From assembly GCA_977020255.1 (NCBI GenBank), contig CDROCS010001386.1, positions 1 to 64,000 on the forward strand: a stretch of 64,000 bases of DNA, in the 5' to 3' direction. Below are positions 251 through 22,496 of this stretch, one piece after another; positions within the stretch are counted from its first letter, which is position 1; each line of letters begins with the position of its first letter. The position numbers and the translations under genes were made by a program. The notes beneath the pieces are model-generated. The model searched no databases, was not told the origin of the DNA, and saw nothing but the letters and a program-made list of their open reading frames with translations. The DNA is from Obrimoposthia wandeli. Taxonomy: Eukaryota.

Positions 251-1600
251 TTACTCATATAGTACGGTCTTTCCTCCAATATGTTCATATATCGTTGGCT
301 GGTACTCTGGTGCTGGTTCATCTAGAAATGGTAGATGCTTGGTATAATTGTGTTGAATTTTTGTAAATTCATTTGACCTGTTCGTCTTGCGAGATCATGA
401 CGTTTCTTTTTTGATCTCGACTCTATCTTTGAACAACAAAACAAGATGAGTAATATTAATATTATAAATCCAATGATCAATTAAGTATTGGATTAACAAT
501 TCTAGAATACCATAACGTACTGTAGTATTCCTTGCTCTTGATGGTTAATATTTTAAATTTGTGTGCACTTTGGTTGGACTTGTCACTGAGAAGCACTATT
601 TTAGTTTGTCCAAATATGTAGTCTTCACATGTGACAACACTAATTCCATAATGTCCACTAGAAGTGTTATCATTTCGGTCATGGGACTATACACATTCGT
701 CCTGGACATCCTTTTACACATGATCATCGGCTTTGCCTTCAGGATGTCTTGATTATTTCTAGGGTGTTGTCTAGATTTCTCAAATGTAAATTATATTCGG
801 ATAGTGTCATCAATTCGGCTTTACTGGTTGGCATGAAAACACGGTACCAATCAATTACTACTCCATAGATCAATCCTTGTGCAACGGTGCACAGGGCCTT
901 GACTGACCTTTTGCGAGGTTTTAATTATCAATCGTTTGAGAGATATCTGTTTCTGATTGGTTCGTTTTGTTGTCTGTCGTTGTTTTTGACATCTCCTCGA
1001 TTCCATCTCGTCCGATAATCAACTTCCTTTGGTTTACCTTGTATCGTCAACTTTCCGAATCCATTTTTGGCGGACAAGCATGTTTTATGTCCTTCCATTG
1101 TTTCAATTATCACTCTCTTACTTCCATACTCACGTGTTTTGATGACATCGCCAATGAATATATACGTTGGTCATATCAACATCTTTTTGTATTTCCTTTA
1201 CAACTCGTTTTCTCCGCTTGCATCCGGCGAATGTTGTTGATATTCGGTCAGAAGTGTGCTGTCGGTCAGCTTCGTAATCTATTCGGAATTGATTCAGTAT
1301 TCTGTTTGTGGGTAAAATATCGCTTCATTTACTATGTTGTCTTCGATCCTTTCGTCTGGAGTACACAAGCACTTTGTTTGTTGGTCCATTTGGTCTTTTC
1401 ATCTTTACAAACTGAAATCTTTTACTGTCGGTTCTCATAGATCGAAGACATTTTCGGATGATCCACACATCAATTAGTCCTAACAACACTAATAGCATCA
1501 TGTCGGTGCCGGCGTATGGTACTGTATGGTGTAGTTGTGGATTTCGTTGAACCAGGAACTATTTCCGTGGTTGGAGCCTATCTCCTGTGCTCCCGTTATT
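251..1600 (-). pseudogene. Frameshifted accessory membrane-protein coding region of the element
   Basis: Manual minus-strand translation gives LIIGFIILILLILFCCSKIESRSKKKR (480-400; TM helix, CC, basic stop-transfer). After a 1-nt shift it continues LDEPAPEYQPTIYEHIGGKTVLYE* (stop 251-253). A second hydrophobic stretch MMLLVLLGLIDVWIIRK lies near 1500-1450. The ORF at 928..1113 is another fragment. Confidence 0.45.
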
Positions 1601-1625
1601 GGCATTAAACAACTTAACAAGCCTA

Positions 1626-2263
1626 TCATGCTAGCAATCTTTGGTATTGAAAGCTGGGCACTGTTGTTGTAGCTTCATTTATTTCTCGTTGTTGCTTCCT
1701 CTTTTCGGTGTATTTTTCTATTTCTCGAACGAGTAACGGTTTGAATTCCGTATTCGGTCTATTCTGTTTGATGTAGACCATCGCTTCTTCTGGCGTGTGA
1801 CCATGGTACTCTACCAACAAGGATACACCTATGGTAGGCGCTAACATCGTACCTTTTTTCTGATATATCAGAACGCCGTTTCCTTCTGTGACTTCAGCTT
1901 GGATGGTTTGAGTCAATTTCGTCAGATGTTGTTGTGCATCGTTTATCTCTCTCGATTGGAAGCATGTATGTATCGAGTGGTGTCATCTTCAGTATTTTGA
2001 CACAGACTAATTATCTCGTTTCCGACTTCAACAATGTTGATTACCCGGTTGATACTGTGGAACTTTAATCCAGCAGTATCTATATCTCCTGGATGACATA
2101 AAAATACTTTTGGCATTATCTGTGTAATTTTGTCGACTCCGGCTAAAAATAACCCGGTCAACGATAATGCTTGGAGGAAATTCTTTTCCTTTGGATCCTC
2201 CGGAATGTCGTCCATCCGTCTTTGTTCTTGCAACAGAAGTTGATAATTTGCCAACTGTCCCAA
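1626..2263 (-). CDS. Second dual-specificity phosphatase-like domain, catalytically degenerate (pseudophosphatase); split by frameshift
   Basis: ITQIMPKVFLCHPGDI...INRVINIV and VLIYQKKGTMLAPTIGVSLLVEYHGHTPEEAMVYIKQNRP align to the DUSP pattern. The P-loop Cys and Arg of HCxxGxSRS are absent. Confidence 0.65.
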
Positions 2264-2267
2264 AAAA

Positions 2268-2650
2268 TTAAGATTTGGGTTTGCAATACTTCTTCTTCTT
2301 CTCCTGTAGGTATTTTAACGCTTCTAGTACCTGCATTCGTCTAGTCTTTATTAGATATGCTAATACTAGGGTTGCTGATCGAGAAATTCCTTTCTGACAA
2401 TGTACCAACACTTTTCCTTTGTTCCGGAGTTCTCTGTGAAGTATTTCGTTTGTTTCTACGAACCATTCGAGAAGATTAGCGTCCATTGAGTCTTTTACTC
2501 TTAATGTCATAGCTCTGATCGTCTGATATTATTGCGATTTGTGATTCATTGTAACGTTGATCACATATGTTATTCCTTGTTCCAACAGTTTCTTTTCATC
2601 TGTTGCATCCTCCACATTTCCGAGGTATAACTTACCTGGAATGATCTCAC
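2268..2650 (-). CDS. Dual-specificity protein phosphatase domain (intact active-site motif); split by frameshift at ~2520
   Basis: MSEIIPGKLYLGNVEDATDEKKLLEQGITYVINVT (ORF 2529..3401) is followed by VKDSMDANLLEWF...GKVLVHCQKGISRSATLVLAYLIKT (ORF 2268..2510), a canonical DUSP signature. Confidence 0.92.
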
Positions 2651-3860
2651 TCATTGGTGGCATTAATTCTGACTCTTCAAGTTTTAGTCTTTCTAACCTC
2701 TTCTCTATTTGTTCGTCGATGTTAGTTAGTTTCGCCAGTTTCTTTCCTCTCAGCATTCGTATTGCTGGAGAGATATTCATTTTTGTCTCTGATGTCTGTT
2801 CCTTTGTTGAGTCTTCTTCCGACTCGGTCTCCTCTGCAGATTTAATTCGTCTTTCTTGTATATTTTGTTTCACGAATTCTATGTTTTGTCTTTTTCTGCT
2901 TTCTTTAGCGAATTCAATCTCCATGGTTCTTCCGAATCGCTCTATTATGTTATCTTCGGATTCTGTTGATTCTGTATCGTTACTTTCCGGTTCGCTGTCT
3001 TCACTAGACTCGCTCGAAGGGTATTCTGGTATGTCTGTCTGAACTGAAATTAATGAAGGTGTTAGAATAATTGGATTGATTTCCCCTTCGTATTTGTGAA
3101 TCGGATACGGTATTACACTATCTTTAAGTATCTCAACTTGGAACTGTGCTCCATAGCACATGACAATTGTTTCCAATTTACCCATGATGGACAATCCATC
3201 AAAATAGGTAACATTCAGCTTAGATATCGGTGTCTTCGCATAATTAATTAAGTTTACTCTTTTCCGGTTGATGACGGCCATCGATTTTTGTAAAGTATAA
3301 TTTCGTCGTTTATCGATGTATGGCATTACACTTGGCGCGGACGATACTATTTCAGCATGATATTTTGGCTGAATTGAGTTGGTCACTTGTTCTCGGATCA
3401 TATTGATTCTTTGTGGCTTCTTATTTTTAGCTTCCCACTTCCGGTATCCGCTGTCAATGCGTAACTCTGCCGTTAACTTTGATGATTTTATTGTTAGTCA
3501 CTTCCGGATGGTTTGGCGAATGGAATCCCCCTTCTATTACGCTCAACCTTACAGATACTTCCGTTTGATCTGTCTCTAACCGGTGAGATTCTGGTATACA
3601 ACATACAATTGTTTTTCCATCAAAGTATTTAGTGTCCATCTGACAAATTATCTTTTCAGTGTCAGCGTCGATTAAATGGACTCTCATGATATCTCTTTTC
3701 CCATGTGAATTACGTAATACCATTGGCCATTACATCGTGAGTATTCTTGTTTGAGTCTTTTTGGCGTACCATGCAGTATGTGACCACCGGCCGGTTCCTT
3801 CTCTTCCTGGGTAGTCCTGCTTCAATTGCTGTCATAGTTCTGCCATGCAACTATGTTTGG
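2651..3860 (-). CDS. Unknown accessory polyprotein segment between integrase and DUSP (acidic Ser/Glu linker; possible divergent domains)
   Basis: ORFs 2529..3401 and 3454..3723 are co-oriented with, and adjoin, the neighbouring ORFs by small frame shifts. No confidently recognisable family. Confidence 0.5.
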
Positions 3861-3862
3861 TG

Positions 3863-5330
3863 TCAATGTGATTTCGTTATCACTTTCTCAGTTGTAAACA
3901 CATTGGAATTTTGATAAAGTGCTGCGACTAATGTATTTCCGTCGTAGTATAACACTCTAAGTTCGCACAGAAATTCGTTTTTGAGTGCATCTTGCACAAT
4001 GACTTCTTGATCCACATCTTTCGGTTGTGTTTTTTCTAAAACGACTATTATCTCTTCGTCTTCTTCTAATATCTCTTGTGGTGCGATGTGTCGGATTACT
4101 TCCTTTTCCTCTTGGTACTTCATTCTGAGCATACCAATTCTCGCTGATTTTTTCTCGCTACCACTCGTCATCATGTTTATGTAGTTCCGATCACTTACCA
4201 TTCGTGTAAGTTTAATGGTATTGGTATTTGGCTTCGATTTCTGTGATCTTAACTCATATCGTGACGCATTATCTTTATTTGGTACTAATTTGCATCGATT
4301 TGCATGTACAATCATCGGTTCCTTGTTCCGATTCTCTTCGTTGATTACTTTCAAATTTGTTGAAGTTGTCTGGATCACCTTGTATGGTCCTTTGTATGGT
4401 CTATGAAGTTTAAACGATAGACCTGGTTCGATGACTGGATAAAATATCATCCACTTGATCTCCGAAATAAATTCATGTGGTTTTGCTTTTTTTGTCGTAT
4501 TGTTCTTGTAACCTTCTTGATTGAATTTCAGCTTCAATCCGGCTTTGGTCCAAGCATCTTGTAACCTTTCCTTCATGACGACAATGTATTGTTCAGTTTC
4601 TAGGTACTGAGATGTTGGCTCGGTCCACTCCAGATCCATTGGCATATTGTTCTGTCTGAGATACATCAGATAGAATGGTGTGTGACCCGTCGCCTCTCGA
4701 ACTGAATTCCTGTAAGCATATAAACATGAAGGTAAATATTTATCCCAATCCTCTTGCTTGTCTGAGCAATAGGATTGTACCATCATACATAAAGTTTTTA
4801 TTAAACCTTTCTACCAGACCATCTGTCTGTGGGTGATATGGTGAAGTTTGTAACTTCATAATTCCGAATATCTTCGATACTGCTTTTATGACTTCTCCAG
4901 TGAAGTTCTTTCCTTGATCCGTTAACAACTTTCTAGGCACTCCGTATCGAAATATTATCTCTTCTACTAAGATTTGCGCTATTGTTTCAGCTTTCTGGTT
5001 CTGCATGGGATATGCTTCTACCCATCTCGTCATGTAATCCGTAAATACTATGACATACTTGTTTCCTTTACTTGATTCTCTCAATGGTCCCAATATATCC
5101 ATCGCTGTGAATTCCATTGGTGCCAAAGGAACTGGCATTGGTTTCAGTGGAACTTTAGTACGAGTTCAAGTGTCTTTTCTGGTTAAACATACTTTACATT
5201 GTTTACACCATTGTTTTTATGTCGTCTTCCATACCATCCCAATGGTTCTTCTCTTTGATTCTGGCTATCGTCTTTCGCCTGACAGATGTCCTCCCAGTGT
5301 TCCATCGTGATATTGGATCATCACTGCTGT
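3863..5330 (-). CDS. Integrase (HHCC, DDE core, GPY/F motif) with C-terminal extension; frameshifted
   Basis: YHDGTLGGHLSG...W...CKQCKVC lies at ~5310-5190. The core reads AMDILGP...TDQGKNF...YHPQTDGLVERFNK, followed by WDKYLPSCLYAYRNS...TPFYLMY and KLHRPYKGPYKV. Confidence 0.95.
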
Positions 5331-5510
5331 TTTCAATGACTTCGGAATTACTACTACTATCTTTCCGACATTATTGACAATATACAAGATTCCTTCTTTT
5401 TATCAGTATTTTTCGTCATTTCATCGTTTAGATCTCCTTTCACCAACAATTCTTTGATTAGACTCAGTTCTTCATCTTCTTTCTGTTCTTTGATGATCTC
5501 TTTGTCTATT

Positions 5511-6900
5511 TTACCCGTCTTTAGCAAAATCGTCAGTAGATTTTGCTTCTCCTTTTTGGTCATTGGTTTCATCTTCTTCTGGAATTATGTTTCCTTTCTC
5601 GTCTACATTTGTCAATCTCGATAAACAATCTGCGTTGCCATTCGACTTTCCGGTTCTATAACGGATTTCTAGATCGAATTCGGCCAATTTTAGAAACCAT
5701 CTGTTTAATCTACTCATCTCATCTCTATGTTTATATAAGAACTGTAGTGGTTTGTGATCTGTATACAGGAATACCTTTTGTCCTAGCAAATAGTGTCTGT
5801 ACTGTCTACATGAATACACTATGGCTAGACATTCCTTTTCGATAACAGAGTATCCTCTTTCGGCTCTGTTTAATCCTCTACTTGCATACGCAATGACGTG
5901 TTCTCTTCCTTCGTCATCCTCTTGTCCCAATACTGCTCCTACAGCATAGTTACTTGCATCTGTCATGAGTATGAATTGTCGGTTTATATCTGGAAACGCT
6001 AATATTGGTGCTTTTATCAATCTTTCTTTTAAATGCTCGAACGCTTGTTGAGCTTCTTCTCCCCATATGAACTTCTCATCTTTTCTCGTCAACTTTCTCA
6101 ATGGTGTTGCTATATCTGAAAAATGTTCAACAAATCGTCTATAATAATTCGCAAGACCTAAAAAACTCTGTATCTCCTTAACAGTCTTTGGCGCTAGATG
6201 CGCTTTTACTTTCTCGATCTTTGCTGGATCAGGTCGGATGCCTTCTTTCGATACTATATGTCCTAAAAATGTTACTCGCTCTTTAGCCCATTCGCATTTT
6301 GTAGGTTTAACTTTTAATTTAGCGTTTTCCAGTCTTTTAAATACAACTTCAAGATTTTTTAAATGTTCTTCGAACGTTTTCGAAAATATTATTATGTCAT
6401 CAATATAAACCATCGTGTTTGCACACGATGCGAGTACAAAATTCATGCAACGCTGAAATGTTGCTGGAGCTCCTGTCAGTCCGAATGGCATCTTTTTCGC
6501 ATTCGTATAATCCATCTCCGCAGGAAAAGGCTGTTTTGTGTTTATCCTCTTCCTCTATCTCGATTTGCCAGTATCCACTCTGCAAATCCAATGTCGTAAA
6601 ATAATCTGAATTACCCAATTTATCGAGCATCTCTTCGATTCTAGGTAATGGATACACATCTTTTCTTGTGATCTTGTTCAGTTCTCTGAAATCTATACAG
6701 AATCTCATTTTCCCATCCTTCTTTTTTTACCAACACCACAGGTGCTGAGAATGGCGAAAAACTCGGTCTAATTACTCCTGTTTTAGACATATCTTCGATC
6801 TGACTTTTTACTTCATCTTGTAATTGTAATGGTACTCGGTATGGTCTTCTTCTGACTACTTTGTCTTCTGTCAGTGGTATTGTGTGTTTTATGACAGGTG
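5511..6900 (-). CDS. Reverse transcriptase + RNase H; frameshifted at ~6725 and ~6500
   Basis: RFCIDFRELNK...YPLPRIEEML...LDLQSGYWQI, MPFGLTGAPATFQR, VYIDDIIIFS; RNase H TDASNYAVGAVL...EKECLAIV...TDHKPL. Confidence 0.97.
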
Positions 6901-6906
6901 TTTCTC

Positions 6907-7300
6907 CTATGTCATATGGATTTTTGCAATTACTTTTGGAAATTTATGTATTAGATCAAGTAATTGTTTCTTTTCTCTAGTTGTCAGTCTTTCTGATTGG
7001 ATTACTATTTCTTCGTAATCATTCGTATCTTTATCGAGTTTCATAGCGCATACAGTGGAATTCTCCATCTGTGCTATCTTTCCCAACCTCATTCCTCTGT
7101 ATAATAGAATGTCATTGTTGGTTGTATTCATCAGTCTAACTGGTATTTTGTGGTTTTCGATCAGACATACTGTACTCACAACTGGTAATTCGTATTTCTC
7201 TATGAAATCTCGTGATGGTTCGAACACAACTGGTCCTTTATCTTCTGATAATGTGTGACCTTGAATGAAATTGTGATCTTTTACCGATTTTTATAGGATT
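6907..7300 (-). CDS. PR-RT spacer region of Gypsy pol
   Basis: IPVRLMNTTNNDILLYRGMRLGKI resembles the spacer commonly seen upstream of RT in invertebrate Gypsy pol. It is linked to both neighbours by 1-nt shifts. Confidence 0.6.
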
Positions 7301-7313
7301 CTCTATAATTACA

Positions 7314-9377
7314 TCAATTTGGTTTTATTTGTCTGTTTGATGTACTATCCTTCAATCTTGGATCTTGTAAATCAATGCTTATCCCTTTAAGTTGTGATAG
7401 TACATCCATTCCTAAAATTGTAGGTTCAGGACATTCTTTCATGATTCTAACTGGTATAGTGATCGTATTACGTCCAATTATAAATGTACATGGTAATATT
7501 CCCGTCACTTTTACAGGGTCTCCATTGACCGATACCAAGAATTCATCTGGTTCTGCCATTGTTCGTTTCTGTTCCTCTGTCAAACAGTCTTCACTTACTA
7601 TCGAAGCTACAGCACCTGTATCAATTAAAGCTTTTACTCGTAAATTATTTACTCTAATGATAGCTGCTGGTCGCTGTGCTCCATTTATGTTTCCCATATG
7701 GTATATTGTATTTATCGAATTATTACACTCTGTCCGTCCACTTCCTATGTTTGGATAGTGAAATCTAATGTTTCTCACTTGTCGATCTATTATTCTTCGA
7801 CAAATCGGACATGATACCATTTCATTCGCACATCTCCGACATGTTCTTACATGTCCGCATGGTAGAAAGGCAACTTCTATTTTGTTGACCATGCAAACTG
7901 CGCATTCCGGATCTTCTAGTATGTATTCTAGTTCATTTATGTACTCTTTCTCTTTTGTTTCAATTGTACTGTCATCTTTATCTCGCAGTAATTCAAAAAT
8001 CGATCCGTATCCGTTTCGCGTAGTTTTTATTTTTAATTCTACCAATTCTCTGATTCTTTCTGCTTCTTTTGGATATAATCTTCTCACGAATGACACTACC
8101 GGTGTGTCTTGTTGAGCCAAAATCTCTTTCCGTGTGATTTGGTATTCGATTATACATTCGGTTTTCTGTTCCTTTTGCTTTATTTTGTTTTTTAAAGTAC
8201 AAAATTCGCAAAATTCATGATGTAAAATTTTCTTAGGTAGCTCAAGAGTGTATCTGTCGATAATTCGTTCTTTTTTACACTTGTGGCATTTAATTACGTC
8301 TTTACTTTTTGCCAATTTTTTAAGTCTTGGATCTTCGAAAGTTACTTCTCGATACTGTTCGTCACATTCGTTCACTTCTCGCATAACTTCGAATATATCT
8401 TCAATTCGACTATTCGTTATTACTCTACCTGTTATTAGAGCTGATTCTCCTTTTGGAATCCCGTCACTGTAATCGAAATCGGGTGCTTTTCCCATTTGGA
8501 TTTCTGGTACGTTTGACGTTTTCAGTTTCAAAAGAAATGGACAATTTGGTGCATCTCTTTTATGACGTCTCATTGGGTTTTCATTCTGTTCCCATTCTCT
8601 AAACTTTACTCTACACCATACGCATCGTACTACTATCTCCTGACCATAACTGCTTGTCGCGTTTAACATTTCTAAACCTGATCTTGCCATTTTACGTGCC
8701 ATTCCTTTTGAATAGTACTGTTCTAGTATGTTTCGTCTCTTTCTCTCGAATCTCATGGGATCCCTTTCTGACAGATTTACATATGTTATTTTTCTCCTCG
8801 TCGTATCTTGTGGTCCGAAATTTACATTTTTGTAGTGAAGTATCGACTTTGCTAGCGCTTCCTGTTTTTTGTCTGGGTACGAACTTCCCATACGGAACGT
8901 AGTGCATTTTTCCTTTTCGACTATAGGTCCTCTCAACATTTTTATCTCTCTCACTGAACTGTCATTCTTATTACTCTTGTTGTTTGGTAGTATAATTATT
9001 CCTTCAAACATTCGTATTACGTCCATCCCAATCATGACTGGACTACCGCAATCTGTGAATATTCTAGCATTCAACTGCAATGCTCTTCCATCGATATTCA
9101 ATGAACATTTTAGTGTTCCTTCCGACACTACATCTGTACCATTCACGTTAACAAATGTCTGTTTTCTAGGACATACTTCTCTTAATTCTTTTGATGACAA
9201 GATTTCTTTACTCAGTACTGATACTGCAGATCCGGTATCAACTTCGGCAAGATATTCTCTTCCGTTCAATGTTACTGCTACTTGTGGTGGAGCATTTGGA
9301 TTCTCATTGGATATCCTAGACTTCAGAATTCTTCTGGAATTATCTTTTTGTCTTTTCCTCTGCTTGTGGAATCTCAC
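7314..9377 (-). CDS. Aspartyl protease 1 - BIR - degenerate BIR - RING (IAP module) - aspartyl protease 2
   Basis: PR1: LAEVDTGSAVSVL...MIGMDVI. BIR1: CVWC-x16-H-x6-C (CVWCRVKFREWEQNENPMRRHKRDAPNCPFL). BIR2-like: TF..LA..DVIKCHKC-x18-H-x6-C. RING: CAVCMVNKIEVAFLPCGHVRTCRRCANEMVSCPICR. PR2: ALIDTGAVASIV...ILGMDVL. Confidence 0.92.
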   Translation of the reverse strand: MRFHKQRKRQKDNSRRILKSRISNENPNAPPQVAVTLNGREYLAEVDTGSAVSVLSKEILSSKELREVCPRKQTFVNVNGTDVVSEGTLKCSLNIDGRALQLNARIFTDCGSPVMIGMDVIRMFEGIIILPNNKSNKNDSSVREIKMLRGPIVEKEKCTTFRMGSSYPDKKQEALAKSILHYKNVNFGPQDTTRRKITYVNLSERDPMRFERKRRNILEQYYSKGMARKMARSGLEMLNATSSYGQEIVVRCVWCRVKFREWEQNENPMRRHKRDAPNCPFLLKLKTSNVPEIQMGKAPDFDYSDGIPKGESALITGRVITNSRIEDIFEVMREVNECDEQYREVTFEDPRLKKLAKSKDVIKCHKCKKERIIDRYTLELPKKILHHEFCEFCTLKNKIKQKEQKTECIIEYQITRKEILAQQDTPVVSFVRRLYPKEAERIRELVELKIKTTRNGYGSIFELLRDKDDSTIETKEKEYINELEYILEDPECAVCMVNKIEVAFLPCGHVRTCRRCANEMVSCPICRRIIDRQVRNIRFHYPNIGSGRTECNNSINTIYHMGNINGAQRPAAIIRVNNLRVKALIDTGAVASIVSEDCLTEEQKRTMAEPDEFLVSVNGDPVKVTGILPCTFIIGRNTITIPVRIMKECPEPTILGMDVLSQLKGISIDLQDPRLKDSTSNRQIKPN

Positions 9378-11504
9378 TGTAGCTCACTTTAGGCCATCTT
9401 ATCATTAAGATGCCTCTCTTGAACTTTTCCTTCTCTTCCTTTAATTCCTTCATTGGATATAGGTTTAACGCCACTTCTTCCTTGTCTGGTAACGGAATCT
9501 TCGGTTTTCCTGGTATCTTTGCATATACTCCTGGACTATCATTATCGTCGTCGTTATCGTCTCGATAGTTTCTTGGTTCTCTCATCATGGTTCTCGTTTG
9601 GTGTTGTTCCTTCTTGAGGGCTCGCAACTCGTTCTCGTGATGATGGTGCATTAGATATTTTGCTAAAAATGGAAAACATCCAATTATAAGTTGCCAGGTG
9701 ATTCCGGTTATCCTGTATAAACTATACGTAGACAACACCTGGGCTATAATTACCTGCACAAATTTAATTATAACATAAATACCTATGATACCCGAAAATA
9801 ATTGTCCTAAGACAAGGAATTTCCCCCACATCTTTCTAAGTGTCTGATGTGCTGCTTCCTTGAAATGACTTGGCGATAATAACATATCGAAATTCGCATA
9901 TCTCGCTCCTGGCGGTAATGCTCGATGTACCATCTCCGTAAGTACTCTGGCTCTTCTTACTGGAAACATTATTTCGTTCCACGCCGCTTTTAAATCTTTT
10001 TCATTGTACAATCCTGCGCTCTCCATATTTTCCACCGCTTGGAATTTCATTTTACCTTTAAGATTCGTCATTCTTATCATCGCTGGGGTTTTCGTTGCCT
10101 TCCGATCAGGTAACGTTATCCATAGATTATTCGTCATCTGATATTCAGGTGCCATTATATTAGAGCAGCTGATTTCTTTAGTTGGAGTGTCTTTTGGAAG
10201 TAACATTCTCGTGATTGGTTCAACAAAAAGATCTTTTAGATTATACGTTACTGCCAATTCACTCGTACATCGATTTGTTTTTCTCAACTGTACCTCTACT
10301 TTATTACACTTGTAAGTATACAATACTTCTCCCATGGTTTTAGCAAATACTCCTTCATCCAAGGGTAATAATGGTGCTACCATGTCTGGATTCGTAATAG
10401 CTAATGCTAACTTTGTTCTTACGATCTCTTTGTTTAGCTGGCAATCTCTTTCGATCATCATTCGATATAACTGTTCCATTTGCATCAATCCTTTATGATA
10501 ATAGAAATCAATTTTATTATTAAAATACGTGTGTAGCTGCATATCTTTAGGTTTTAGCTTGGTTTCTGCCAATGCTATTGCTTCTTTAGACAAAACTATT
10601 CCTGGATAGTTTGTAGTACTAACAGTCATTCCGCATCGCGCTTTGTTTCTCTTTTTAATAAATATCAATCCTTCTTCTATTGATGTTGCCATTAACAGTG
10701 TAGGTGTTTTTGTCATTGGGATTGGTCTTGTTTCATTTAACAATCCTTTTCCTGCTTTATTATACAGGAACCCTTCTCCATCCTTATTATACAGGAATCC
10801 TTTTATTTTATTAAAGCTAATCTCTTTCAAAAATACTAAAGAGCATTGCTTCGGATTTATGTTATACACAATTGTGGATTCACCTGTAAAACAAGATGCA
10901 TCTGTCATTTTACATTCTGGATACTTCATCATTAGTTGTGTCTTTTTATCAAAATTGGCGGTCCATGTTTTTAATTCGATTTTGTAAGTTACATCCATTA
11001 CTAACTCAGATACTTTGGTTCCACGCACGTTTTTTGTTTCTCCGTCACAAGATCCATCAGCCCATCGTTGTCCGACTCTCGTGACTGTTTCGTATCGTCT
11101 CACTCCAATTTGTACTTCAGGTTTGTAATTCTTGTCTACCTCTATCGTTCCGTTCGAAATGCATCTTCGCAATCTCTCGGCAAAACCTTATGTGCCTTGT
11201 ACGGTGTGGTAGGTGTGATTTCTGACATAAAACTTCTATGACCACAATAGAATTCGTGATAACTTGAATGGATTGAACATTCTTTCACTTCTACTTGTAC
11301 TTTATCAACATCCTGATACACAAAGTAGTTTTCAACACCTTGAACTTCTAGTTTTGACGGTTGTGATTCTGGGCAGTCTTCGCTGTCAAGCAGTGAATAC
11401 TTTTGTCCCATCTTTGGTATGCTACAGTCATATGCTATCAATCCTGATGCCTGTTGCATTCCCATAAACATTACTAACATCATCATCATCATTGTTGTGG
11501 ACAT
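9340..11504 (-). CDS. Envelope glycoprotein, chuvirus/Jingchuvirales-like (class III fusion-type); N-terminus encoded at the end of the gag ORF
   Basis: Signal peptide MSTTMMMMMLVMFMGMQQASG then LIAYDC...SLLDSEDC. A 1-nt shift at ~11150 joins the 610-aa ORF containing YFNNKIDFYY...DCQLNKEIV...GEVLYTYKCNKVEV...CTSELAV..LFVEPITRML and a C-terminal hydrophobic region. Confidence 0.8.
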
Positions 11505-14500
11505 ATTTGGTTGATTGTTTCTCTCTTTCGGACGGTATTGTTTATTTTCTCTTTGACGATTCTCATGACATTGTTCGTCATCGTCTTCGTTCATTTCCAC
11601 AATGGTTTTAGCGTAGTCACTTAATTTTGCCCAACCTCCGTTTTCGTCAATTCGTCTCTGTAATACATTCTCGATCAAATACATCGCTTCATTTATTCCT
11701 TGTTTGACTTCGTGAGGTTGGCTCGTTCGTTCCGTCAATTGGAAACATAGATATGTGATCGCTGTAATTAACTTTTTATTTGTAGTCTGGTTTCCACATA
11801 ATCTCGCTAAAACTTCACCGTCATAAAATCTATCTATCGATGCATGGTATACATGATTCGCGGTCATTCTCTTTACTGCAGACATCTGTGATCTAACTGC
11901 TTTAGTCAAATTGTCTGTTATATCGGTTGTTTCATCTCTGTACATTTTAAACAACTTCGGCTTCACTTGCCTGAGAATTCCCGTAAGTATATCTTTACTA
12001 CTTGGAGTTTCCGAATTCATATCACCTCTGATATCTTCATTCCTCTCTGCACTATACTGCTCTAATGACGCTGCTAACTGTCCAATACTTAGATGTCTCT
12101 CTTCATCAGTTTGTGGTGCTGTTAGAACATTTCGTAATATACTTTCGCCTTTTCTAGGTCTTCCAGGTCCTCTTCGAAAATACTGATACTCAGCTTGATT
12201 CTCTCCTGGATCATACGTTTCACCATTATACTGTATCTCTTGACTTGGTCCTTCTTCATGGCCAATCTCTTCATTTTGTCGCATCATTTGCTCTGCTTGT
12301 CTATCTTTGTATGCGGCATGCCAAATTGGTGAATCCAAATCTACAATCTCGGAGACTTCGTCTTCTCCTACTAGTTGGGTTACGGTTTCGTTTTGTCTCA
12401 CTTGGTTAGCTGTATCCGTGACTTCATCTTGTCTGATTGGAATTATATCTGGTTCTGGTGGCACCTCGACCACTGGAGTTGTCAACTCATTTTCTAAATT
12501 CATGTCTTGTAATTCAGCTACGTACGGTTCTGGTGTGGATGTCTTGTTCCAAGCTTCAGCTACATCATTATCTCCGCTTTCACTTGAACTGTCTAAAATT
12601 TCTATAGGCGTTTTTATCATTTCTAACGCAGAATTCAATATCTCGGTTAATCCTTCATTATCTACTAACTCTTGACGTCCTACAGTGATGACATCAATTT
12701 TTTCCTCTAATTCATTTCCTATCGGATATCCAAACTCGACTGGTACGTCCTCATCATCTAGTGATCTCACTTTATAATGGAACAACATATTCATTCCATC
12801 AATTTCAAGTTTCTCAGCCAAGTTTTTCCGAATCGTTTTCATTGTTTGATACACGTTAAGTTTTTCATGTATTATCTGTCCGGAAATTAATCGAAGTGAA
12901 ATTTTCATCGTTCCTTTTTGGTTTGATCTCTGTACATAACGACCATAACCTTTCAGTAATCCTCGGGGTACTTCTTTGTAACCCAAGTTATCATGACTAT
13001 GTTTAACCAATTCTGCACGCACTTCTTCCAATCGGTGCACTTTAATTGTTTGCAATTTGGCCAAAACTTCTGGAGCTTCACTCGTTTCATCTAACGGTTG
13101 ATTTAACGTCTCCTTAGCTTCACTAATTATCTTTTTTACATTTTCCATACTCGTAGCATTTCTTGCTGCTTCTACATGATCAGTCATAGGTTGTGCGTTA
13201 CACGTTTTCTCTATTGGTGTCTCATACGCTTCTAATATTCTATTCATTAAATCATTCATCTCTTCTCTCGAATGTGGACTTCTCTCTTGTTTCGACAACG
13301 TAGATGAATTCGCCATCTTTGTATGTGGTGAATCTTTAATTATTCCCAACATTCGTTCAAATTTACTATCACTATCCTCAAAATCTATTTCGCGTCGCAG
13401 CTCGGTTTCGCGATTCCTATCACTGTCATCGCTTACATAACTAAAATTTCCTTTCGGTTTCGGCGAACTCTCTCGACTATTTGTCTTGTCGACATTATTA
13501 TTATTATATCTACCAGAATTATTATATCTCTCAGCTCCTTGCTGTCCTACGTAATTATTGTATCTCTCAGCTCCTTGCTGTCTGTCTGCATAGTTATTGT
13601 ATCTACCTGGTGACTGTTGTCTATCTGTATACTGATTATTCAGTCTCCATGGCTGTGGAGTATATCCACCACCTCTATTCCATGGCGGAGGTGAATTATA
13701 TCCTCTATAATTATTTCCAAAATTATTATTACCGAAATTATTATTTCCAAATCTGTTAGTTCCGAACTCTTTACTTCTCGTACAATCTCTCGAATAGTGA
13801 CCCATTTGTTTACACGTGTAACACATTATTCTCCCTCGAATATCTATCTTATTTTGTTCATCTTCGAACTGTACTCGACGACTATTCTGTCTATTATCAT
13901 AGCGTCCTCTAAAATCATTTCTTCGGAAATTCGATTCAAAACCGCTTCCTCGATTATTGAATCTTCCGTCACTATTTCCTGCATTATTTCCAAATCGAGA
14001 GTCACTTCGCTCTCCTCTGTTTGCATTATAATTCCTATCGTCTCCTCTCCAAGGTTGGCGATTTCCTGAATTATCTCTATTAAATCTATTCCTGGAATCA
14101 TCTCTATTTCTATTCCACGAATCATTATTATTTCTACCTCTTGAATCATCTCGATTCCTGTTCCAAGACTCACTATTATTTCTACCTCTCGAATCATCTC
14201 GATTCCTACTTCGGAAATTATCTCTATTTCCGTTACTGGATTCATCTACTTTTTCAAACTTATTTTGTCCATAATTTCGATTCTGAAAATTACTCGGTTC
14301 TGTTTTATTCACGAAGACCTTTGTCTTATCGTCGTCACCTGCAGTCATTGCGTAGATTGCCAATGCTGCGTTATTTTTTATATTTTTCTCAATCTCTCTC
14401 GCCTTTCGTACGGCGTTATCAAAATCATTTGTATCCGATACTGCTAATAACACTTTAATATCCTTTTTCAATCCTCCTCTAAATATATCTAACAAGACCT

Positions 14501-15396
14501 CTGCCATTTCATTTTGGTTCCGGTCATTTTCCGCTGCTTGTGCTTCTGGAGCTACAGGATTACCGTCCTGATTTCTCATTATTCTTCTTGGGTACGCTCT
14601 TGCGGCCAAGGTTCTCAAAACATACGCGTATTCATTCACGCCTTCATCATGTTTCTGTTTCCGTTCTCTCATGAGTCGCTTATTTACTTTGGCTAAGTCT
14701 CCTAATACCAATTTTCCAATAAAAGCATTTTCCAACGTTGGCCAGTCTAAACGTTCTGCTTCTGTCAAATGTTTATACACTTCAAGTGCTAATCCGGTTA
14801 AATGTGCCTGTACTCTGACACATTTTTCTTTATCGTTCCATCCTTGAACATCTGCACAACTCGAATATTCTGCGAGGAAGTCACAAATACTTTCCTCATC
14901 TCCTTTAAACTTTGTAATCTGCAATGATCCTGAAAAATTGGGTCTCAACGTCGCATTTAAAGCTTGTGCCAACTGCTCGGCATTCATGTCACCTACATTA
15001 TTTCCTGCATTATTTTCTGCTTGAGCTCCTGGTTGAGCCATATTTTCAACTATAACTTCTTCAACTATTTCTTCAATATTATTCAATGGAACTTCCTCAA
15101 TCACTACTGGATTGGCAATTTCAAATTCTTCTTGGTCTATGTCACCAAATAATTCAGTCAAATTAAAACTGCCGGTTGAAACCGCTGATTGATCAACGTC
15201 TCTTTCTGATACGTTTTCTTCGACTCTAGTCTTTTCTGTTACTTTGTTATCTGTTTGGGGAACCTGTTCAATTCGGTTAACTTTATTATTATTTATCTCT
15301 TCCTTGGGAATCTGACTTTGTCTTCTAGTATTATACGCGGGTCCTTTTCTATTATCCGTTGTCTTATCAATTATGTATTCGTTTACGATATCAATT
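11142..15396 (-). CDS. Extended Gag polyprotein: capsid, R/N/D-rich repeats, CCHC knuckle, ubiquitin-like domain, AT-hook, Bcl-2-like domain, Env signal peptide
   Basis: Capsid-like FKGDEESICDFL...GWNDKEKC...LTGLALEVY...RKQKHDEGVNEYAYVLRTLA; CYTCKQMGHYSRDC at 13782-13824. The reading frame is open upstream of the listed start to a stop at ~15397. Confidence 0.88.
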
Positions 15397-15494
15397 TACT
15401 TATTATTTTTATCTTATTTCACAATTCTTATTTTACGATTTTTTATCTCTTTAATTAGTTCGAGGACAGAGTCTCCCGACTTAACTTATTCAAT

Positions 15495-16235
15495 TAATTA
15501 CTTCGAGTATCAATCCACTCGATTCTCACTTATCAAATTTACTGGCTCGAGGAACAAATCCACTCGACTTCTCAAAACCTATCAAACTCTTAACTTCGAG
15601 GAACAAATCTACCCGATTTCTCAAAAACTTATCAAATTCTTAACTTCGAGGAACAAATCTACCCGATTTCTCAACACTTATCAAATTCTTAACTTCGAGG
15701 AACAAATCTACCCGATTTCTTAAAAACTTATCAAATTCTTAACTTCGAGGAACAAATCTACCCGATTTCTCAACACTTATCAAATTCTTAACTTCGAGGA
15801 ACAAATCTACTCGATTTCTCAAAAACTTATCAAATTCTTAACTTCGAGGAACAAATCTACCCGATTTCTCAACACTTATCAAATTCTTAACTTCGAGGAA
15901 CAAATCTACCCGATTTCTCAACACTTATCAAATTCTTAACTTCGAGGAACAAATCTACTCGATTTCTCAAAAACTTATCAAATTCTTAACTTCGAGGAAC
16001 AAATCTACCCGATTTCTCAACACTTATCAAATTCTTAACTTCGAGGAACAAATCTACCCGATTTCTCAACACTTATCAAATTCTTAACTTCGAGGAACAA
16101 ATCTACTCGATTTCTCAAAAACTTATCAAATTCTTAACTTCGAGGAACAAATCTACCCGATTTCTCAACACTTATCAAATTCTTAACTTCGAGGAACAAA
16201 TCTACCCGATTTCTCAACACTTATCAAATTCTTAT
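15495..16235. repeat. Tandem array, 49-50 bp unit, ~15 copies, in the element's 5' leader
   Basis: Unit CACTTATCAAATTCTTAACTTCGAGGAACAAATCTACCCGATTTCTCAA, with period 49 measured at 15661/15710. Confidence 0.95.
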
Positions 16236-16289
16236 CTCAATTTACTTATATCTTCTTCTGAACTTATTCTCAATTGTCTATATTCTTCT

Positions 16290-16590
16290 GCTGAAACTTA
16301 TTCTCAATTTATCTGAAACTTATTCTCAATTTATCTGAAACTTATTCTCAATATCTGAAACTTATTCTTAATACCTGAAACTTATTCTTAATATCTGAAA
16401 CTTATTCTCAATATCTGAAACTTATTCTTAATATCTGTACTTATTCTCAATATCTGAAACTTATTCTTAATATCTGTACTTATTCTATTTACCTGAAACT
16501 TATTCTCAATTATCCGCAACTTATCTGAACTTATTCTATTCACCTGAAACTTATTCTCAATTATCCAAAACTTATCTGAACTTATTCTAC
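16290..16590. repeat. Tandem array, ~19-20 bp unit, in 5' leader
   Basis: Repeated CTGAAACTTATTCTCAAT(A/T) variants. Confidence 0.85.
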
Positions 16591-16615: not shown

Positions 16616-16634
16616 ATCCTCACTCGGGGCACCA
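16616..16634 (-). promoter_or_regulatory. Primer-binding site complementary to elongator tRNA-Met
   Basis: The minus strand reads TGGTGCCCCGAGTGAGGAT, 8 nt after the LTR's CA end. It matches the 3' end of metazoan elongator tRNA-Met (human complement TGGTGCCCCGTGTGAGGAT from memory, 1 mismatch). Confidence 0.8.
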
Positions 16635-17048
16635 CTTTAATATGTTGGGGTTTCTATACGAAACTTGGTATAGAGCCTCTTAGTGTGCGGAGGACCCCAA
16701 CGTGAGTTCGATTAGAAGCAGGTCTTAAAGTTGGTCGTGGCCTACTTAGTGTTATGGTTGCCTAATCTCTTGTACTATCTGAAGGTGTTTGATTTGATGT
16801 CTCTTAGTCTGAAGGGTGTAAAAACAACTTGTTCTAATGTAGGAAATTGTTTATTCAAAATTCACGTAACTAACACCACAATACGTTTATGTACGTATTT
16901 CTAAAAAGTATGATAAAATTCCTAAAGGACTTCTGTGAGTCTCTACAAGAAGTGGGGATGAACCACGTATCGATTTTACGCTAAGGGGAATCGAGATTTT
17001 TAGAGTTGTTCCTTTAACTCGAGAATAAGCTCAAATTATAGATTTTCA

Positions 17049-17642
17049 AAAACTTTATTTTATCTTGGACAAACTTTAGATTATCAATACGCAATGAAGG
17101 GTAAAATCTTCTTTTAGATCGGATAAAACTTTATTTTATCTTGGGCAAACTTTAAATTGTCAATACGCAATGGAGGGTAAAATCTTCTTTTAAATCGGAT
17201 AAAACTTTATTTTATCTTGGGCAAACTTTAAATTGTCAATACGCAATGGAGGGTAAAATCTTCTTTTAAATCGGATAAAACTTTATTTTATCTTGGGCAA
17301 ACTTTAAATTGTCAATACGCAATGGAGGGTAAAATCTTCTTTTAAATAGGATAAAACTTTATTTTATCTTGGGCAAACTTTAAATTGTCAATATGCAATG
17401 CAGGGTAAAATCTTCTTTTAATCGGAAAAACTCTTTAAATTATCAATACGAAATGCAGGGCAAAATCCTCTTTTAATCGGAAAAACTCTTTAAATTATCA
17501 ATACGAAATGCAGGGCAAAATCCTCTTTTAATCGGAAAAACTCTTTAAATTATCAATACGAAATGCAGGGCAAAATCCTCTTTTAATCGGAAAAACTCTT
17601 TAAATTATCAATACGAAATGCAGGGCAAAATCCTCTTTTAAT
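17049..17642. repeat. LTR tandem arrays: 76-bp unit x~5 grading into related 55-bp unit x4
   Basis: Periods 17201/17277 and 17421/17476/17531/17586. Confidence 0.9.
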
Positions 17643-19192
17643 CTTTACTCAATAAAGGCCAAACTTCCTTAAATTTTCGGTCTTTATACCTTTATTTTCT
17701 CCGAAATCACTGGATCCTCGTCTCCTAGTATAGTCTGCTCGAGTTGGCGAGATCAGGAAATAGATTGAAATTAAATAGACTGGAGATAACTGGGAATTTG
17801 CTGCCTTGTGGTCTATTCCTCGGTAGATCGCGATATTGATTTTTCCGGTTGTAATTTCTTTTTCTTATCGACGACTTTTATAGTCGATTCTACAACTCCT
17901 GTCTGTCAGTCAGCAATGTCGACAGCGGTTTCACTGGAGTCTTTTGCGGCAGCTGAAAATTAATTTTAACACTCCAAATTAACTGCACGAAAATGTGCTT
18001 ACCTTGATTGACGGTTTGATTGACGTTGCTAATTTTCTTTTTCGACTATAATTAATTCTAATGTTTCCTTTTGCTTTTTTGCACTTTTAGTTGATTAATT
18101 CTAACTTTTATACACATTTCACACTATACACGACCTTCGTGGTCCTCCTAATTTTTACCCTAAATTCCACTAATTTTAATTCTAAAACTTAAATTAATAT
18201 TTTAATTTAATTTTCAACCTTGCTTTCAAGGATTTTTATTTTAGTATTTAATTTACTAAAATATTTAATTTTCTTAATTCTCAACCTTAACAAATTAGCC
18301 TAATAGATTTTGGCTCAAAAAAACTTACATTGAGGAATTGTTGAGACGTCTGGCAGTTGGCCGGTTCTCACAGTTTCTCACAGAGTTAAGTGGTTGCAGA
18401 ACAGGTGGCGAATTCCCACAATATTTTTCTGATTTTCTTCTTGTTTTCTTCTTCTTAATTATTGACTCTAATAATTGGAATTCTTTGGGCCCTTTTAATA
18501 ATTTTAAAATCTCTTATATATACCTACACAAGAAACATGACTCTTCAAGGTCTTAAATTTATTCAATCCCATTTTATTTAATTTAACATTTTTTAGTTAT
18601 TTATTTCACTTTCTTTAACCTTACTTTTAGGGTTATATTTTCTATATATATTAATTAAATTCAAAATCCTAATCCTAACACCTTTATTAATTCAATTTTA
18701 TCAAATTTAATTCGTATATAGATGTTATATCTATTGAAATTGTTAGGTTTAGGAATTAGAAAATTAAAATAATTAGTTGATTTTATACTAAAATAAAAAT
18801 CCTTGAAAGCAAGGTTGAAAATTAAATTAAATATTAATTTTGAAATTCAAAACTAAAATTATTGAAATTAAGATAAATATTAGGAGGACCACGAAGGTCG
18901 TGTATAGTGTGTGGTATATAAGGTTAGAATTAATTACTAGTAAAGTGCAAAAAAAGTGAACAATATAGAAAACTGCCAACGTCAGCAGAAAAAAGAAAAA
19001 CCACTAACGTCAGCAGAAACGAAAAGGTAATTAATTAAACATCTGCCAATTTCTGATATTTATGGAATCAGTTGAAATTGACAGAAGCAAAAAACCCAGG
19101 GCGCAACAAGGATCGGTCGAAGCAGCAACCGGAGCAGCAACAGGCAGGTGGTAATTTAGTGGTAGTGCTCGGTTTTAATCGATTATTTAGAT

Positions 19193-19488
19193 CACAATCA
19201 AAGTCGACTGTGCAGATTATTTGAAAAAGACATTTAATTGGAAAACCCAACGACAATCAAAGTCGACTGTGCAGATTATTTGAAAAAGACATTTAATTGG
19301 AAAACCCAACGACAATCAAAGTCGACTGTGCAGATTATTTGAAAAAGACATTTAATTGGAAAACCCAACGACAATCAAAGTCGACTGTGCAGATTATTTG
19401 AAAAAGACATTTAATTGGAAAACCCAACGACAATCAAAGTCAACTGTGCAGATTATTGGAAAAGACATTTAATTGGAAAACCCAACGA
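19193..19488. repeat. LTR tandem array, 59-bp unit x5
   Basis: Unit ACAATCAAAGTCGACTGTGCAGATTATTTGAAAAAGACATTTAATTGGAAAACCCAACG. Confidence 0.95.
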
Positions 19489-19562
19489 CTAGAAAAATCC
19501 ATCTAATTACCAAGCAGCGGATTCAGTGCCGGACTCTACCCACAGTTACGGATAGGTGAGAC

Positions 19563-20055
19563 GTCTCGCATAAATTCATTGTCCGAAGTTGACAATTAGG
19601 TTTTAACAATTTTAACTTGTCTCGCATAAATTCATTGTCCGAAGTTGACAATTAGGTTTTAACAATTTTAACTTGTCTCGCATAAATTCATTGTCCGAAG
19701 TTGACAATTAGGTTTTAACAATTTTAACTTGTCTCGCATAAATTCATTGTCCGAAGTTGACAATTAGGTTTTAACAATTTTAACTTGTCTCGCATAAATT
19801 CATTGTCCGAAGTTGACAATTAGGTTTTAACAATTTTAACTTGTCTCGCATAAATTCATTGTCCGAAGTTGACAATTAGGTTTTAACAATTTTAACTTGT
19901 CTCGCATAAATTCATTGTCCGAAGTTGACAATTAGGTTTTAACAATTTTAACTTGTCTCGCATAAATTCATTGTCCGAAGTTGACAATTAGGTTCTAACA
20001 ATTTTAACTTGTCTCGCATAATTTCATTCATTGTCCGAAGTTGACAATTAGGTTC
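19563..20055. repeat. LTR tandem array, 56-bp unit x~8.5
   Basis: Unit GTCTCGCATAAATTCATTGTCCGAAGTTGACAATTAGGTTTTAACAATTTTAACTT. Confidence 0.95.
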
Positions 20056-22496
20056 ACGAAATCATTGTCCATCGTTGACAATTAGGCCTTTATACGAATC
20101 ATTGTCCACAGTTGACAATTCGCGTCTGAATTCATAACAATAGAATTTGCCGAGTTAAGAAAGCTTTACCCACACGATCTAAGTTAAGTTGAAGAAGTTT
20201 TAAGAGAGTTGTGTTATAAATTAACCAACCTAGAAAGAAGATTTGCATTCGCACCTTTATTGTCATAAGAATAAAGGTTAAACCTCCAAAATTCAAGCCG
20301 ATAGCAAAGTTAAATTATTGAGAAATCCATAACGCGAGCTTATTCTCGAGTTAGAAGAATAACTCTAAAATCTCGATCACTCCGAACGTAAAATCGATAC
20401 GTGGTTCATCCCCACTTGTTGTAGAGACTTACAGAAGTCTTAGGAATTTTTACTATACTTTTTAGAAAATACGTACATAAACGTATTGTTGTGTTTAGTT
20501 TCGTGAATTACCAATAAACGATTTCCTACATTAGAACAAGTTGTTTTTGAACCCTTCAGAGTAAGAGACGTCAAAACAAACACCTTCAGATAAGAAAGAG
20601 AGATAGGCAACTATAACACTAAGTAGGCCACGACCAACTTTAAGACCTGCTTCTATTCGAACTCACGTTGGGGCCCTCCGCACATAAGAGGATCTGTACA
20701 AGTTTCGTATAGAAACCCCAACAAAATAAGTAATTTGTAAACAGTTTATGACACTATTGCTTGAGGTATGGATTTTATTAAAAAATAAATGTAGGATACA
20801 TTATTTAATATGTTATATTAATTCTTTCACATAGATAAAATTAAAGTTAATATCAATGGTTTTGAATTAGTTCGAAGTTCCCATTTATTATTAAAATAAA
20901 TCTTATAACTTCTAAAATAGTTTATTTTATGTTCAAACTCAAAATTATATTTATTCTTGTTAACATCACATGTTTATTTACGCCAATAAGCATAAAATTT
21001 GAAATATTACAAACTTAAATTCAGATTTTCTCTTTAAAAATACATGTATATATATTTATATTTAGCCAATTTTACGTATAAATTCGTCATCAATTTAATA
21101 TTATTAACCAATAAAATTATTATGAATATGATTGAAGATGAACCATAAGATTTTTCCATTGTTATACTTAAATAATATTTAATCAAATATAATTAATTGA
21201 TATTTCGAGTATTTTTATCCAAAAATTTGAAGTATGGCAATAATTGAATTCACAAATATTTAATTAAGATTCAATAGCTAGGAGGTCATGTAATCATAGT
21301 AAAATACAATAATCTAAATCAAGTTTGCATCATATCGATTTGCTACTGGAGCAAAAGAAAATAGAAAGAAAGTACAATGGTGCATGAATAAGAGTTCACC
21401 TCACAGAACCGATCAGACTGAGTATGAGAAAATAAGTAGAACAAAAACAGATATCGTAGTAGTAACAGTAACAGGCTCCGCCTTTTAAACAGTAGGAATC
21501 GGTCTAGCATCAACTAACTACGTTCATACAGTATCATAAAATATTTCAATAAAAATAGCATGATAGAAGCGACAAAAATCGAGAAATATGCCTAAGGTAT
21601 TAGTATAAAAATAATTTTACATAAATTATTATTGTATTGATTAATTTCATATTTAAATTACTATGTTAAAATTATTAAATTGACAATTAATATAAATTAT
21701 ATATAAAAAGTTGTTTTAATCCATTTTCTGCATGAATAAGTAAGTCAAAATGGCGATAATTAAAAGGTGCATTTATCATCATTTAATAAAATTAGGCATT
21801 GTTATGGATGTTTATGTGAGCTTAATATGAAAGTTAAGAGAGCTCAGGTACAAATAATGAATATATTGTTTCTTGCATAAATTCCTACTGTATGGAAGCA
21901 ATGTAAAAGTACGAATTTTATAAGAAGTTTTCTAAGCCTTCTAAACGAGATTGTATGTTTTACGCAAAATGCATATTAAAGATTGCATAGATTTGATTTT
22001 TGGGTGATAATATATACTAATGTATTCCGTATTCATTTCTATATACAGTTAATAGAATTAGAATGTGTCGTAACTATTCAGAAAAAAACAAATTTAAGGT
22101 ACTTTAGTTAAATTTCAATACGTTTATAAAATTAACTAATATAATTTATAAATATTTATGTTAAAAAACATATTCAATGTGTTATTCTTAGATTTTTGTG
22201 CTGTTGTATTTAAATGCCTTTGGTTGTACGTGCTCTTCAGGCCAACTCTGATTCTAATCGACTGTACTTCGTAGAATATCAGACTTGTCATGACAAAAGT
22301 ACCAGTTTTCGAGACATGTCCTGGAAATAGGTCAACTACGTATTGAACAAGATAGTTGTACTATTTCCAAGAAGCTGCGAAACTGACTTTTGACGACGTT
22401 GTCCGACAGTCCACGATCTATGCATATATCTGTGTATACACAATTGTTGGGTGCTGTCTGATGACCTGTGCATCATCACCATGGCGGTGGTACTCC

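Follow-up and report, generated by a model that had tools for sequence, protein, structure and literature searches.

Two retropepsin domains flank an inhibitor-of-apoptosis module in the polyprotein of a Burro-like giant Ty3/gypsy element

Architecture of the element and its host

We analyzed a 64,000-nucleotide stretch of DNA (the window). On its minus strand, from 20723 down to base 1, lies a giant LTR element, of which the window contains the 5' portion and whose sequence continues beyond base 1. Using Pfam and inspection of the sequence, we read the gene order of this copy as LTR, primer site, gag, env, a block comprising a retropepsin (PR1), an inhibitor-of-apoptosis (IAP) module, and a second retropepsin (PR2), followed by reverse transcriptase (RT), RNase H, integrase, and two phosphatase domains (Table 1). 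The window copy is broken at several places; the order gag, env, PR, BIR, RING, PR, RT, RNase H, integrase, phosphatases was found again in one sister copy, read as two separate pieces. A 689-aa frame (7314-9383, minus strand) holds PR1, a BIR, a BIR-like module, a UBA-like domain, a RING, and PR2. The initial annotation had delimited this block at 7314..9377 as an IAP module between two complete retropepsin domains. The domains are there, whereas the ends of the 689-aa frame are breaks of a decayed copy, and frames in sister copies reach 5,478 aa. The block belongs to the single gag-env-pol polyprotein of a Burro-like giant Ty3/gypsy element: the PR-RT-RNase H-integrase order of Ty3/gypsy elements is seen in both the window and the sister copy, together with TG...CA LTRs and a primer-binding site.

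Table 1. Features of the element within the window
Feature	Position	Strand	Basis and remarks
5' LTR	16643..20723	-	4,081 bp, TG...CA ends; edge motifs; a sister copy matches with its 3' end
LTR repeats	within 16643..20723	-	inverted repeats I11, I13, I18, I23; tandem families D2, D4-D6
Primer-binding-site-like 18-mer, TGG start	16617..16634	-	sequence; 8 nt inside the LTR
gag region, one CCHC zinc knuckle	13779..15395	-	PF00098, aa 525-539
Ubiquitin-like domain (weak)	12747..12896	-	PF00240 E 0.18 in sister copy; E 4e-5 in relative P0161
Bcl-2-like segment (weak, transitive)	11622..11990	-	pairwise E 1e-8 to a P0159 stretch bearing a sub-cut-off PF00452 match
env, Monjiviricetes-type fusion glycoprotein	9553..11495	-	PF24664 E 3.6e-77 and 9.8e-13; broken in window copy
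PR1, env-proximal retropepsin (DTGS 9239-9228)	8988..9293	-	Pfam, motif, profile, predicted fold, selection
Hydrophobic motif after PR1, putative cleavage site	8934..8948	-	inferred, chosen by eye
IAP module between the two putative cleavage sites	7704..8933	-	aa 151-560, 410 aa, 48 kDa; colinear with standalone IAPs
BIR1 (CX2CX16HX6C at 8624-8541)	8523..8753	-	Pfam BIR E 6e-9; model matches solved BIRs, Z 7-7.9
Degenerate BIR-like zinc module (CX2CX18HX6C)	8199..8351	-	weak; unfolded in model
UBA-like three-helix domain	7941..8141	-	weak alignment to cIAP1 UBA region; pLDDT 65-86
IAP-type C3HC4 RING	7800..7904	-	zf-C3HC4_3 E 6e-12; best PDB sequence matches cIAP1, cIAP2, XIAP RINGs
Hydrophobic motif before PR2, putative cleavage site	7704..7718	-	inferred, chosen by eye
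PR2, canonical pre-RT retropepsin (DTGA 7622-7611)	7368..7676	-	Pfam, motif, profile; groups with pre-RT proteases
RT and RNase H	5511..6726	-	PF00078, PF17917, PF17919; broken in window copy
Integrase core and C-terminus	3863..5165	-	PF00665, PF22938; broken in window copy
Two dual-specificity-phosphatase (DSP) domains, after integrase	1626..2630	-	PF00782

Long inverted arms lie at the ends of the LTR, which also contains a further inverted pair (18120-18911) and 55-76-nt tandem arrays, and the 5' leader (15476-16572) is filled by 49-50-nt and 20-nt arrays. The primer-binding-site-like 18-mer probably resembles the 3' end of an elongator tRNA-Met. The capsid part of gag, which has no Pfam match, was placed by position, and env lies between gag and pol with one transmembrane segment ahead of PR1 in the sister copy. 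A PDB sequence search with the Bcl-2-like segment gave no Bcl-2 match. Beyond the integrase, the same-frame region (window 1626-2630; aa 1557-2741 of L022) contains the two phosphatase domains and four hydrophobic segments in ~1,700 aa of cargo that is largely without assignment. All 30 bins of 900-15400 are covered by contigs from three runs, which cannot rank the genes. In a search by sequence words, a marine metagenome contained 0.48 of them, and no RNA data set was among those listed, which does not bear on expression.

This layout recalls Burro (GYPSM1), a planarian giant gypsy element. In the account of it within PMC6431247, which reports Jurka 2007 and Grohme 2018, Burro has a single ORF of ~4,900-5,100 aa with a mononegavirus-type env in frame between gag and pol, exceeds 30 kb, and occurs in very high copy number with long LTRs. 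The same account lists a BIR, two or three CCHC knuckles, motifs of ubiquitin-like and BCL2-like type ahead of env, and MATH, ankyrin, and dUTPase-like motifs, MATH varying among Burro elements; it mentions one PR, and its figure may show two. Our element shares the single long frame, the in-frame env, the BIR, the very high copy number, and the long LTRs. It differs in its size of ~25 kb (21.2 kb plus the 4.1-kb LTR, from one sister copy and the window LTR), in having one zinc knuckle, and in the two phosphatase domains after the integrase. Pfam gave no matches to MATH, ankyrin, or dUTPase-like motifs in it, and the counterparts of Burro's pre-env motifs are a PF00240 match at E 0.18 and a BCL2 likeness that is transitive only. 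We call the element Burro-like and not Burro because size and knuckle number disagree and no named Burro sequence appeared among the matches of our searches.

In the multi-copy COI of the assembly, AAA encodes Asn at conserved sites, i.e. translation table 9, which points to a flatworm-type host; echinoderms use the same code, and the preference for a flatworm is our judgement. The assembly also includes other organisms (G000, L113-L118): a second animal COI that differs from the first occurs in it, as do many COX1 genes of bacterial appearance without stops. Elsewhere in the window, a 5.4-kb stretch (57412-62802) bounded by inverted repeats and containing 46-nt subterminal tandem units resembles a non-autonomous DNA transposon.

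Conservation of the proteases and the IAP module

Both protease domains contain the D[TS]G triad and the G-h-D motif of clan AA retropepsins. Pfam recognized two aspartyl protease stretches in the block (PF13975, E 1.7e-16), and the PF13650 profile covered PR1 from position 1 to 90 of 90. The DTG and downstream G.D motifs (IGMD and ILGMD) that had been reported for the two domains are present, the DTGS of PR1 at 9239-9228 as against the ~9240-9229 given before. The predicted structure of PR1 (pLDDT 74.6) matched Ddi1 and lentiviral proteases in Foldseek (E 2e-5), so PR1 is predicted to fold as a retropepsin; PR2 was assigned to the fold by its Pfam profile. The two domains align without gaps over 116 aa, up to their C-terminal ends, with 30% identity.

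Between them, BIR1 shows exactly the zinc-ligand spacing first annotated, and the C3HC4 RING of IAP type was also borne out; a BIR with C2HC zinc ligands and an IAP-type RING identify the module as an IAP. The segment annotated as a shortened BIR2 fared less well. Of 44 copies, 43 retain its C-C-H-C ligands. Pfam missed it, and a BIR profile built from other IAPs scored 1.8 bits in the window copy and 9.1 bits in a sister, over the N-terminal half only. Its shortness is partly copy-specific, the window copy being 27 nt shorter than 20 of the 31 measurable copies (44 examined). Between this BIR-like module and the RING, we noticed a UBA-like domain absent from the initial annotation, for which there is moderate support: its best single-domain match is the XIAP UBA (2kna; Z 5.7, rmsd 3.4, 59 residues aligned), with a Z in the range of common helical arrangements, and its conditional E against cIAP1 is 0.0025. 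The order BIR, UBA-like, RING is that of cIAP1, cIAP2, and XIAP (PDB 3t6p, 2kna), which also provide the best RING matches. Compared with these cellular proteins, the element IAP is embedded in a polyprotein, its second BIR is degenerate, and its RING is terminal only if cleaved; no CARD was seen in it.

The model of the whole module is poor (pLDDT 45), with the BIR-like module and the RING unfolded. In the alignment with cIAP1, the BIR1 positions that presumably line the peptide groove, as well as the tail Phe, are partly altered, and caspase binding is therefore not predicted from the sequence. Word-indexed protein searches with the 689-aa block returned no match among longer proteins and a single rotifer RING protein among those of near length, and the ESM Atlas yielded no usable match.

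The initial annotation had asked whether the IAP block is missing from most sister copies. It was spanned in all 65 best-scoring copies, which share 97-100% identity and were the best scored of 30,255 first-look candidates, a choice biased to intact copies; in 63 the block is free of stops. Of 40 matches scored in a DNA search, 22 were full-length and 18 partial. In a set of 44 copies, DTG is kept by PR2 in all 44 and by PR1 in 41, the other three not covering it.

We then counted shared variants, i.e. those present in three or more of these 44 copies, which were picked by similarity search in a way that may inflate the signal. The ratio of synonymous to nonsynonymous changes was 16/1 in PR1 (pN/pS 0.02), 11/0 in PR2 (0.00), 11/1 in the UBA (0.03), and 10/2 in the RING (0.06), compared with 12/12 in BIR1 (0.25), 5/7 in the BIR-like module (0.31), and 8/15 in the linker (0.47). 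These values show strong purifying selection on both proteases, from which we infer that both are maintained as working enzymes. The two proteases and the ligase half of the IAP were maintained while the family expanded. Beside this young family, the assembly contains decayed older copies at 66-80% nucleotide identity (L119, L121, L123-L138).

Proteases of related elements and the origin of PR1

To place the two proteases, we compared 17 env-bearing relatives, of which 16 are long polyproteins retrieved with the env of one relative and one is a metagenome locus (L084). A search for env relatives in viral contigs found none. Thirteen of the 17 carry two to four proteases and four carry one, so the earlier statement that duplicated proteases are rare in LTR elements does not hold for this clade. 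Partial sequences that stop short of RT make up four of the 13; the nine that reach it have exactly two proteases ahead of RT in every case. Three proteases occur in eight of the 13, the third lying after the integrase in seven, and P0008 has four in a row after env. The D[TS]G motif is kept in 41 of 42 protease domains, the accessory protease of P0161 reading DTA beside an intact pre-RT partner. The protease profile behind these counts was seeded from the same sequences, which makes its E-values circular; with Pfam alone, most multi-protease proteins still show two or more protease stretches, with one passing in P0159 and none in P0165. P0008 and P0085 each lie on a 21,743-bp contig, and P0085 is an env-less pol protein with two more proteases, so that one element may possibly have six.

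No BIR was found in any of the 17 relatives. The gap between the env-proximal and pre-RT proteases holds C2H2 fingers in P0011, P0156, P0157, and P0158, ankyrins in P0161, and spacers of 76-157 aa elsewhere. By this comparison of sequences, the interval between the proteases looks like a cargo bay that takes variable cargo. Other cargo in P0169, P0159, and P0161 includes immunoglobulin domains after the integrase, ankyrins, and a weak Bcl-2 match before env. In a midpoint-rooted RT-integrase tree of 14 sequences, the multi-protease elements and the window family form one group (FastTree 0.82), with the four single-protease ones outside. The comparison thus supports an earlier state of the lineage in which an accessory protease probably lay between env and the canonical one ahead of RT.

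We next considered where PR1 came from, for which the initial annotation had proposed a phylogeny distinguishing duplication from two donors. The pre-RT proteases, PR2 among them, cluster together (FastTree 0.88, UFBoot 79), although that of P0169 falls elsewhere, and the accessory proteases share a C-terminal ending different from that of the pre-RT class. PR1, in contrast, is placed between the accessory and pre-RT groups (UFBoot 61), and an AU test with only 2,000 replicates rejects neither its sisterhood with its own PR2 (p 0.147) nor that with the accessory group (p 0.202). The flanks of PR1 resemble those of accessory proteases by eye, a weak likeness with Z at most 3.5 over 42 comparisons.

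These data bear on the proposal that PR1 is a local duplicate of PR2 made during IAP capture, for instance by template switching, so that the sandwich would be a scar of the capture. The gapless alignment of the two domains fits such an origin, as do the AU result and the fact that PR1 finds its best pairwise match in its own PR2 (149 vs 136). On profile bits, however, PR1 scores higher as an accessory than as a canonical protease (70 vs 63; PR2, 86 vs 105), and extra proteases occur without an IAP in the 13 relatives, within the RT group that holds the window family. Moreover, among 16 older copies (two with a full PR1-IAP-PR2-RT order, two with PR1-BIR that then break off, and 12 uninformative), none has a protease adjoining RT without the IAP. 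Because 13 of 17 relatives have extra proteases and no BIR, we regard capture by duplication as very unlikely; an ancestral two-protease layout with a cargo bay is the most economical reading of the sequences.

The initial annotation also raised a PR1-PR2 dimer. In this arrangement the two domains would share one active site as a heterodimer, either intramolecular or obligate, with the cargo looped out of a pepsin-like pseudo-dimer, and activation would be freed from Gag-driven crowding. The equally strong purifying selection on both domains is consistent with it, as are the invariable pair ahead of RT and the different C-terminal ends of the two classes. Structure prediction of the PR1:PR2 complex gave a weak score of 0.53, above the 0.00 of the best of three controls, with runs agreeing in at least 72% of contacts and a partner pLDDT of at least 76. 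Among solved pairs, 51 of 78 attain the mark for this score, as do 2 of 108 mismatches; at 0.60 or below, only five solved pairs and all four passing mismatches do so. Since retropepsin dimers have already been solved, the score may reflect fold likeness; the controls included no homodimer, and the modeling does not separate the competing readings of PR1 and PR2. Against a shared active site, the spacers range from 76 to ~440 aa, eight of the 13 multi-protease relatives have three proteases and one has four in a row, putative cleavage motifs ahead of both classes would part the halves, and P0161 combines a DTA accessory domain with an intact partner. Taken together, we find the heterodimer doubtful.

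Proposed processing and kinship of the IAP

Retroelement proteases are typically single-domain homodimers, and a clade that routinely has two to four of them under strong selection contrasts with this norm. On the sequence evidence, we somewhat favor a reading in which PR1 and PR2 are separately released, self-dimerizing domains and the IAP is freed from the polyprotein. With Env inserted in the membrane, the part from PR1 onward would be cytosolic and tethered to Env's single transmembrane segment, and Pol would hang on Env's cytosolic tail and not on Gag. An extra protease may help to process a very long polyprotein with many sites. Each protease, most likely acting as a released domain able to self-dimerize, would cut at hydrophobic border motifs, and cuts after PR1 and before PR2 would release an IAP of ~48 kDa with a near-terminal RING. 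By analogy with the B-IAP of Burro1, the freed protein could act as a ubiquitin ligase and prevent the death of the host cell during replication of the element.

Excision of the IAP as a free protein, one of the possibilities raised initially, is plausible, and it would need cleavage sites, not two proteases. Hydrophobic motifs like the putative sites precede many protease domains in the relatives; such motifs are not significantly enriched in the window family (p 0.49 and 0.125). Separate site motifs for accessory and canonical proteases were considered and not supported, IxM[LIM] being enriched in only 2 of 20 sequences. The ends of the IAP module coincide with those of standalone homologues, whose tails after the last conserved strand of the RING range from none (P0016) to ~19 residues. 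In cIAP1, ligase activity requires the RING C-terminal tail, including F616, according to the portion of PMC6349121 on this tail; the tail Phe of the element IAP lies in a different register.

PR1 might also itself be cargo, a released protease acting on Env's tail or on host proteins, with PR2 doing all of the polyprotein processing. Accessory proteases do vary in number and place like other cargo, and the element has several domains of host manipulation (IAP, DSP, Bcl-2-like, ubiquitin-like). We nevertheless think this very unlikely, as the accessory proteases keep D[TS]G almost throughout and sit at polyprotein borders. The 690-aa cassette is small enough for direct tests of homo- and heterodimerization and of a division of labor among sites.

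In a genome-wide BIR search, two more high-copy families turned out to carry standalone genes for IAPs. These adjoin genes for an A32 ATPase, an rve-chromo integrase, a jelly-roll capsid, and a polymerase-like protein, the last recognized from its sequence, as Pfam matched only its endonuclease VII part; such neighbors indicate that the standalone IAPs sit in Maverick/Polinton-like elements. Two of them (L057 and L059) are colinear with the element IAP, 33% and 38% identical to it, and have the same end point. Unlike the polyprotein-embedded module, they are genes of their own with a stop codon, and the L059 type has no BIR-like module.

We built a BIR+RING tree from 104 IAPs of 156 candidates, the rest lacking one motif. 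The element IAP, both Maverick types, P0002, P0003/P0152, and P0013 formed a clade with support 1.0; for this same grouping, support was 0.94 in a BIR-only tree and 0.17 in a RING-only tree. P0002, the top BLAST match by a small margin (152 vs 148 bits), is sister to the rest of the clade. Viral contigs yielded three IAPs, each matching weakly: one could be included in the tree, where it lay outside the clade, and two lacked a motif needed for inclusion. For the comparison with host IAPs proposed in the initial annotation, searches for a host RING-IAP with the BIR family, P0002, and P0042 recovered none, the results being swamped by mobile copies. Two finds alone stood apart from these, L027, which is a survivin-like gene, and L028/L112, a BIR exon on its own. 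The tree shows the element IAP to be akin to the Maverick IAPs at the sequence level; a single host gene captured more than once, independently, would produce an identical topology.

IAP cargo in a giant flatworm gypsy element is already known, from the BIR in the Burro account of PMC6431247 and from the B-IAP of Burro1. The latter has BIR and RING and is reported to shield stem cells against death mediated by caspases (Lee et al. 2026 Dev Cell, doi 10.1016/j.devcel.2026.03.001, as described in PMC13465017); our element likewise has a BIR and RING region, a likeness drawn from that description. The excerpted text of PMC13524379 describes GAG-ENV-POL errantiviruses with an HSV/gB-type env in Nematoda, Bryozoa, and Platyhelminthes, which have the gene order and env type of our element; its main text, as excerpted, uses "protease" once, in a generic legend, and mentions neither BIR nor Burro. 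The excerpts of PMC8532177, PMC13238120, and PMC11410931 add nothing further on proteases. The multiplication of proteases across the clade and the Maverick-borne kin of the IAP may be new, as our literature search, whose coverage did not extend to Lee 2026 and Grohme 2018, found neither described.

The Maverick kin are relevant to the source of B-IAP, reportedly a beneficial protein, which may have come from the host or have moved between a DNA virus and a retroelement. A broader scheme would have the protease split into two heterodimerizing classes, the interval between them serving as the cargo bay, and the IAP acquired from a Maverick-type DNA virus, or exchanged with one, and not derived from a host gene. 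We rate this combination as unlikely; if true, it would offer a living parallel to the duplication behind pepsins. The element and a Maverick also have a phosphatase in common (29% identical), a likeness too generic for transfer to be proposed. The Maverick/Polinton-like elements were found at L057:4877-7622, L058, and L059-L063, and in one of them a 4.1-kb inverted repeat encloses two additional genes, one phosphatase-like and one TBP-like (PF00352, E 7.5e-13).
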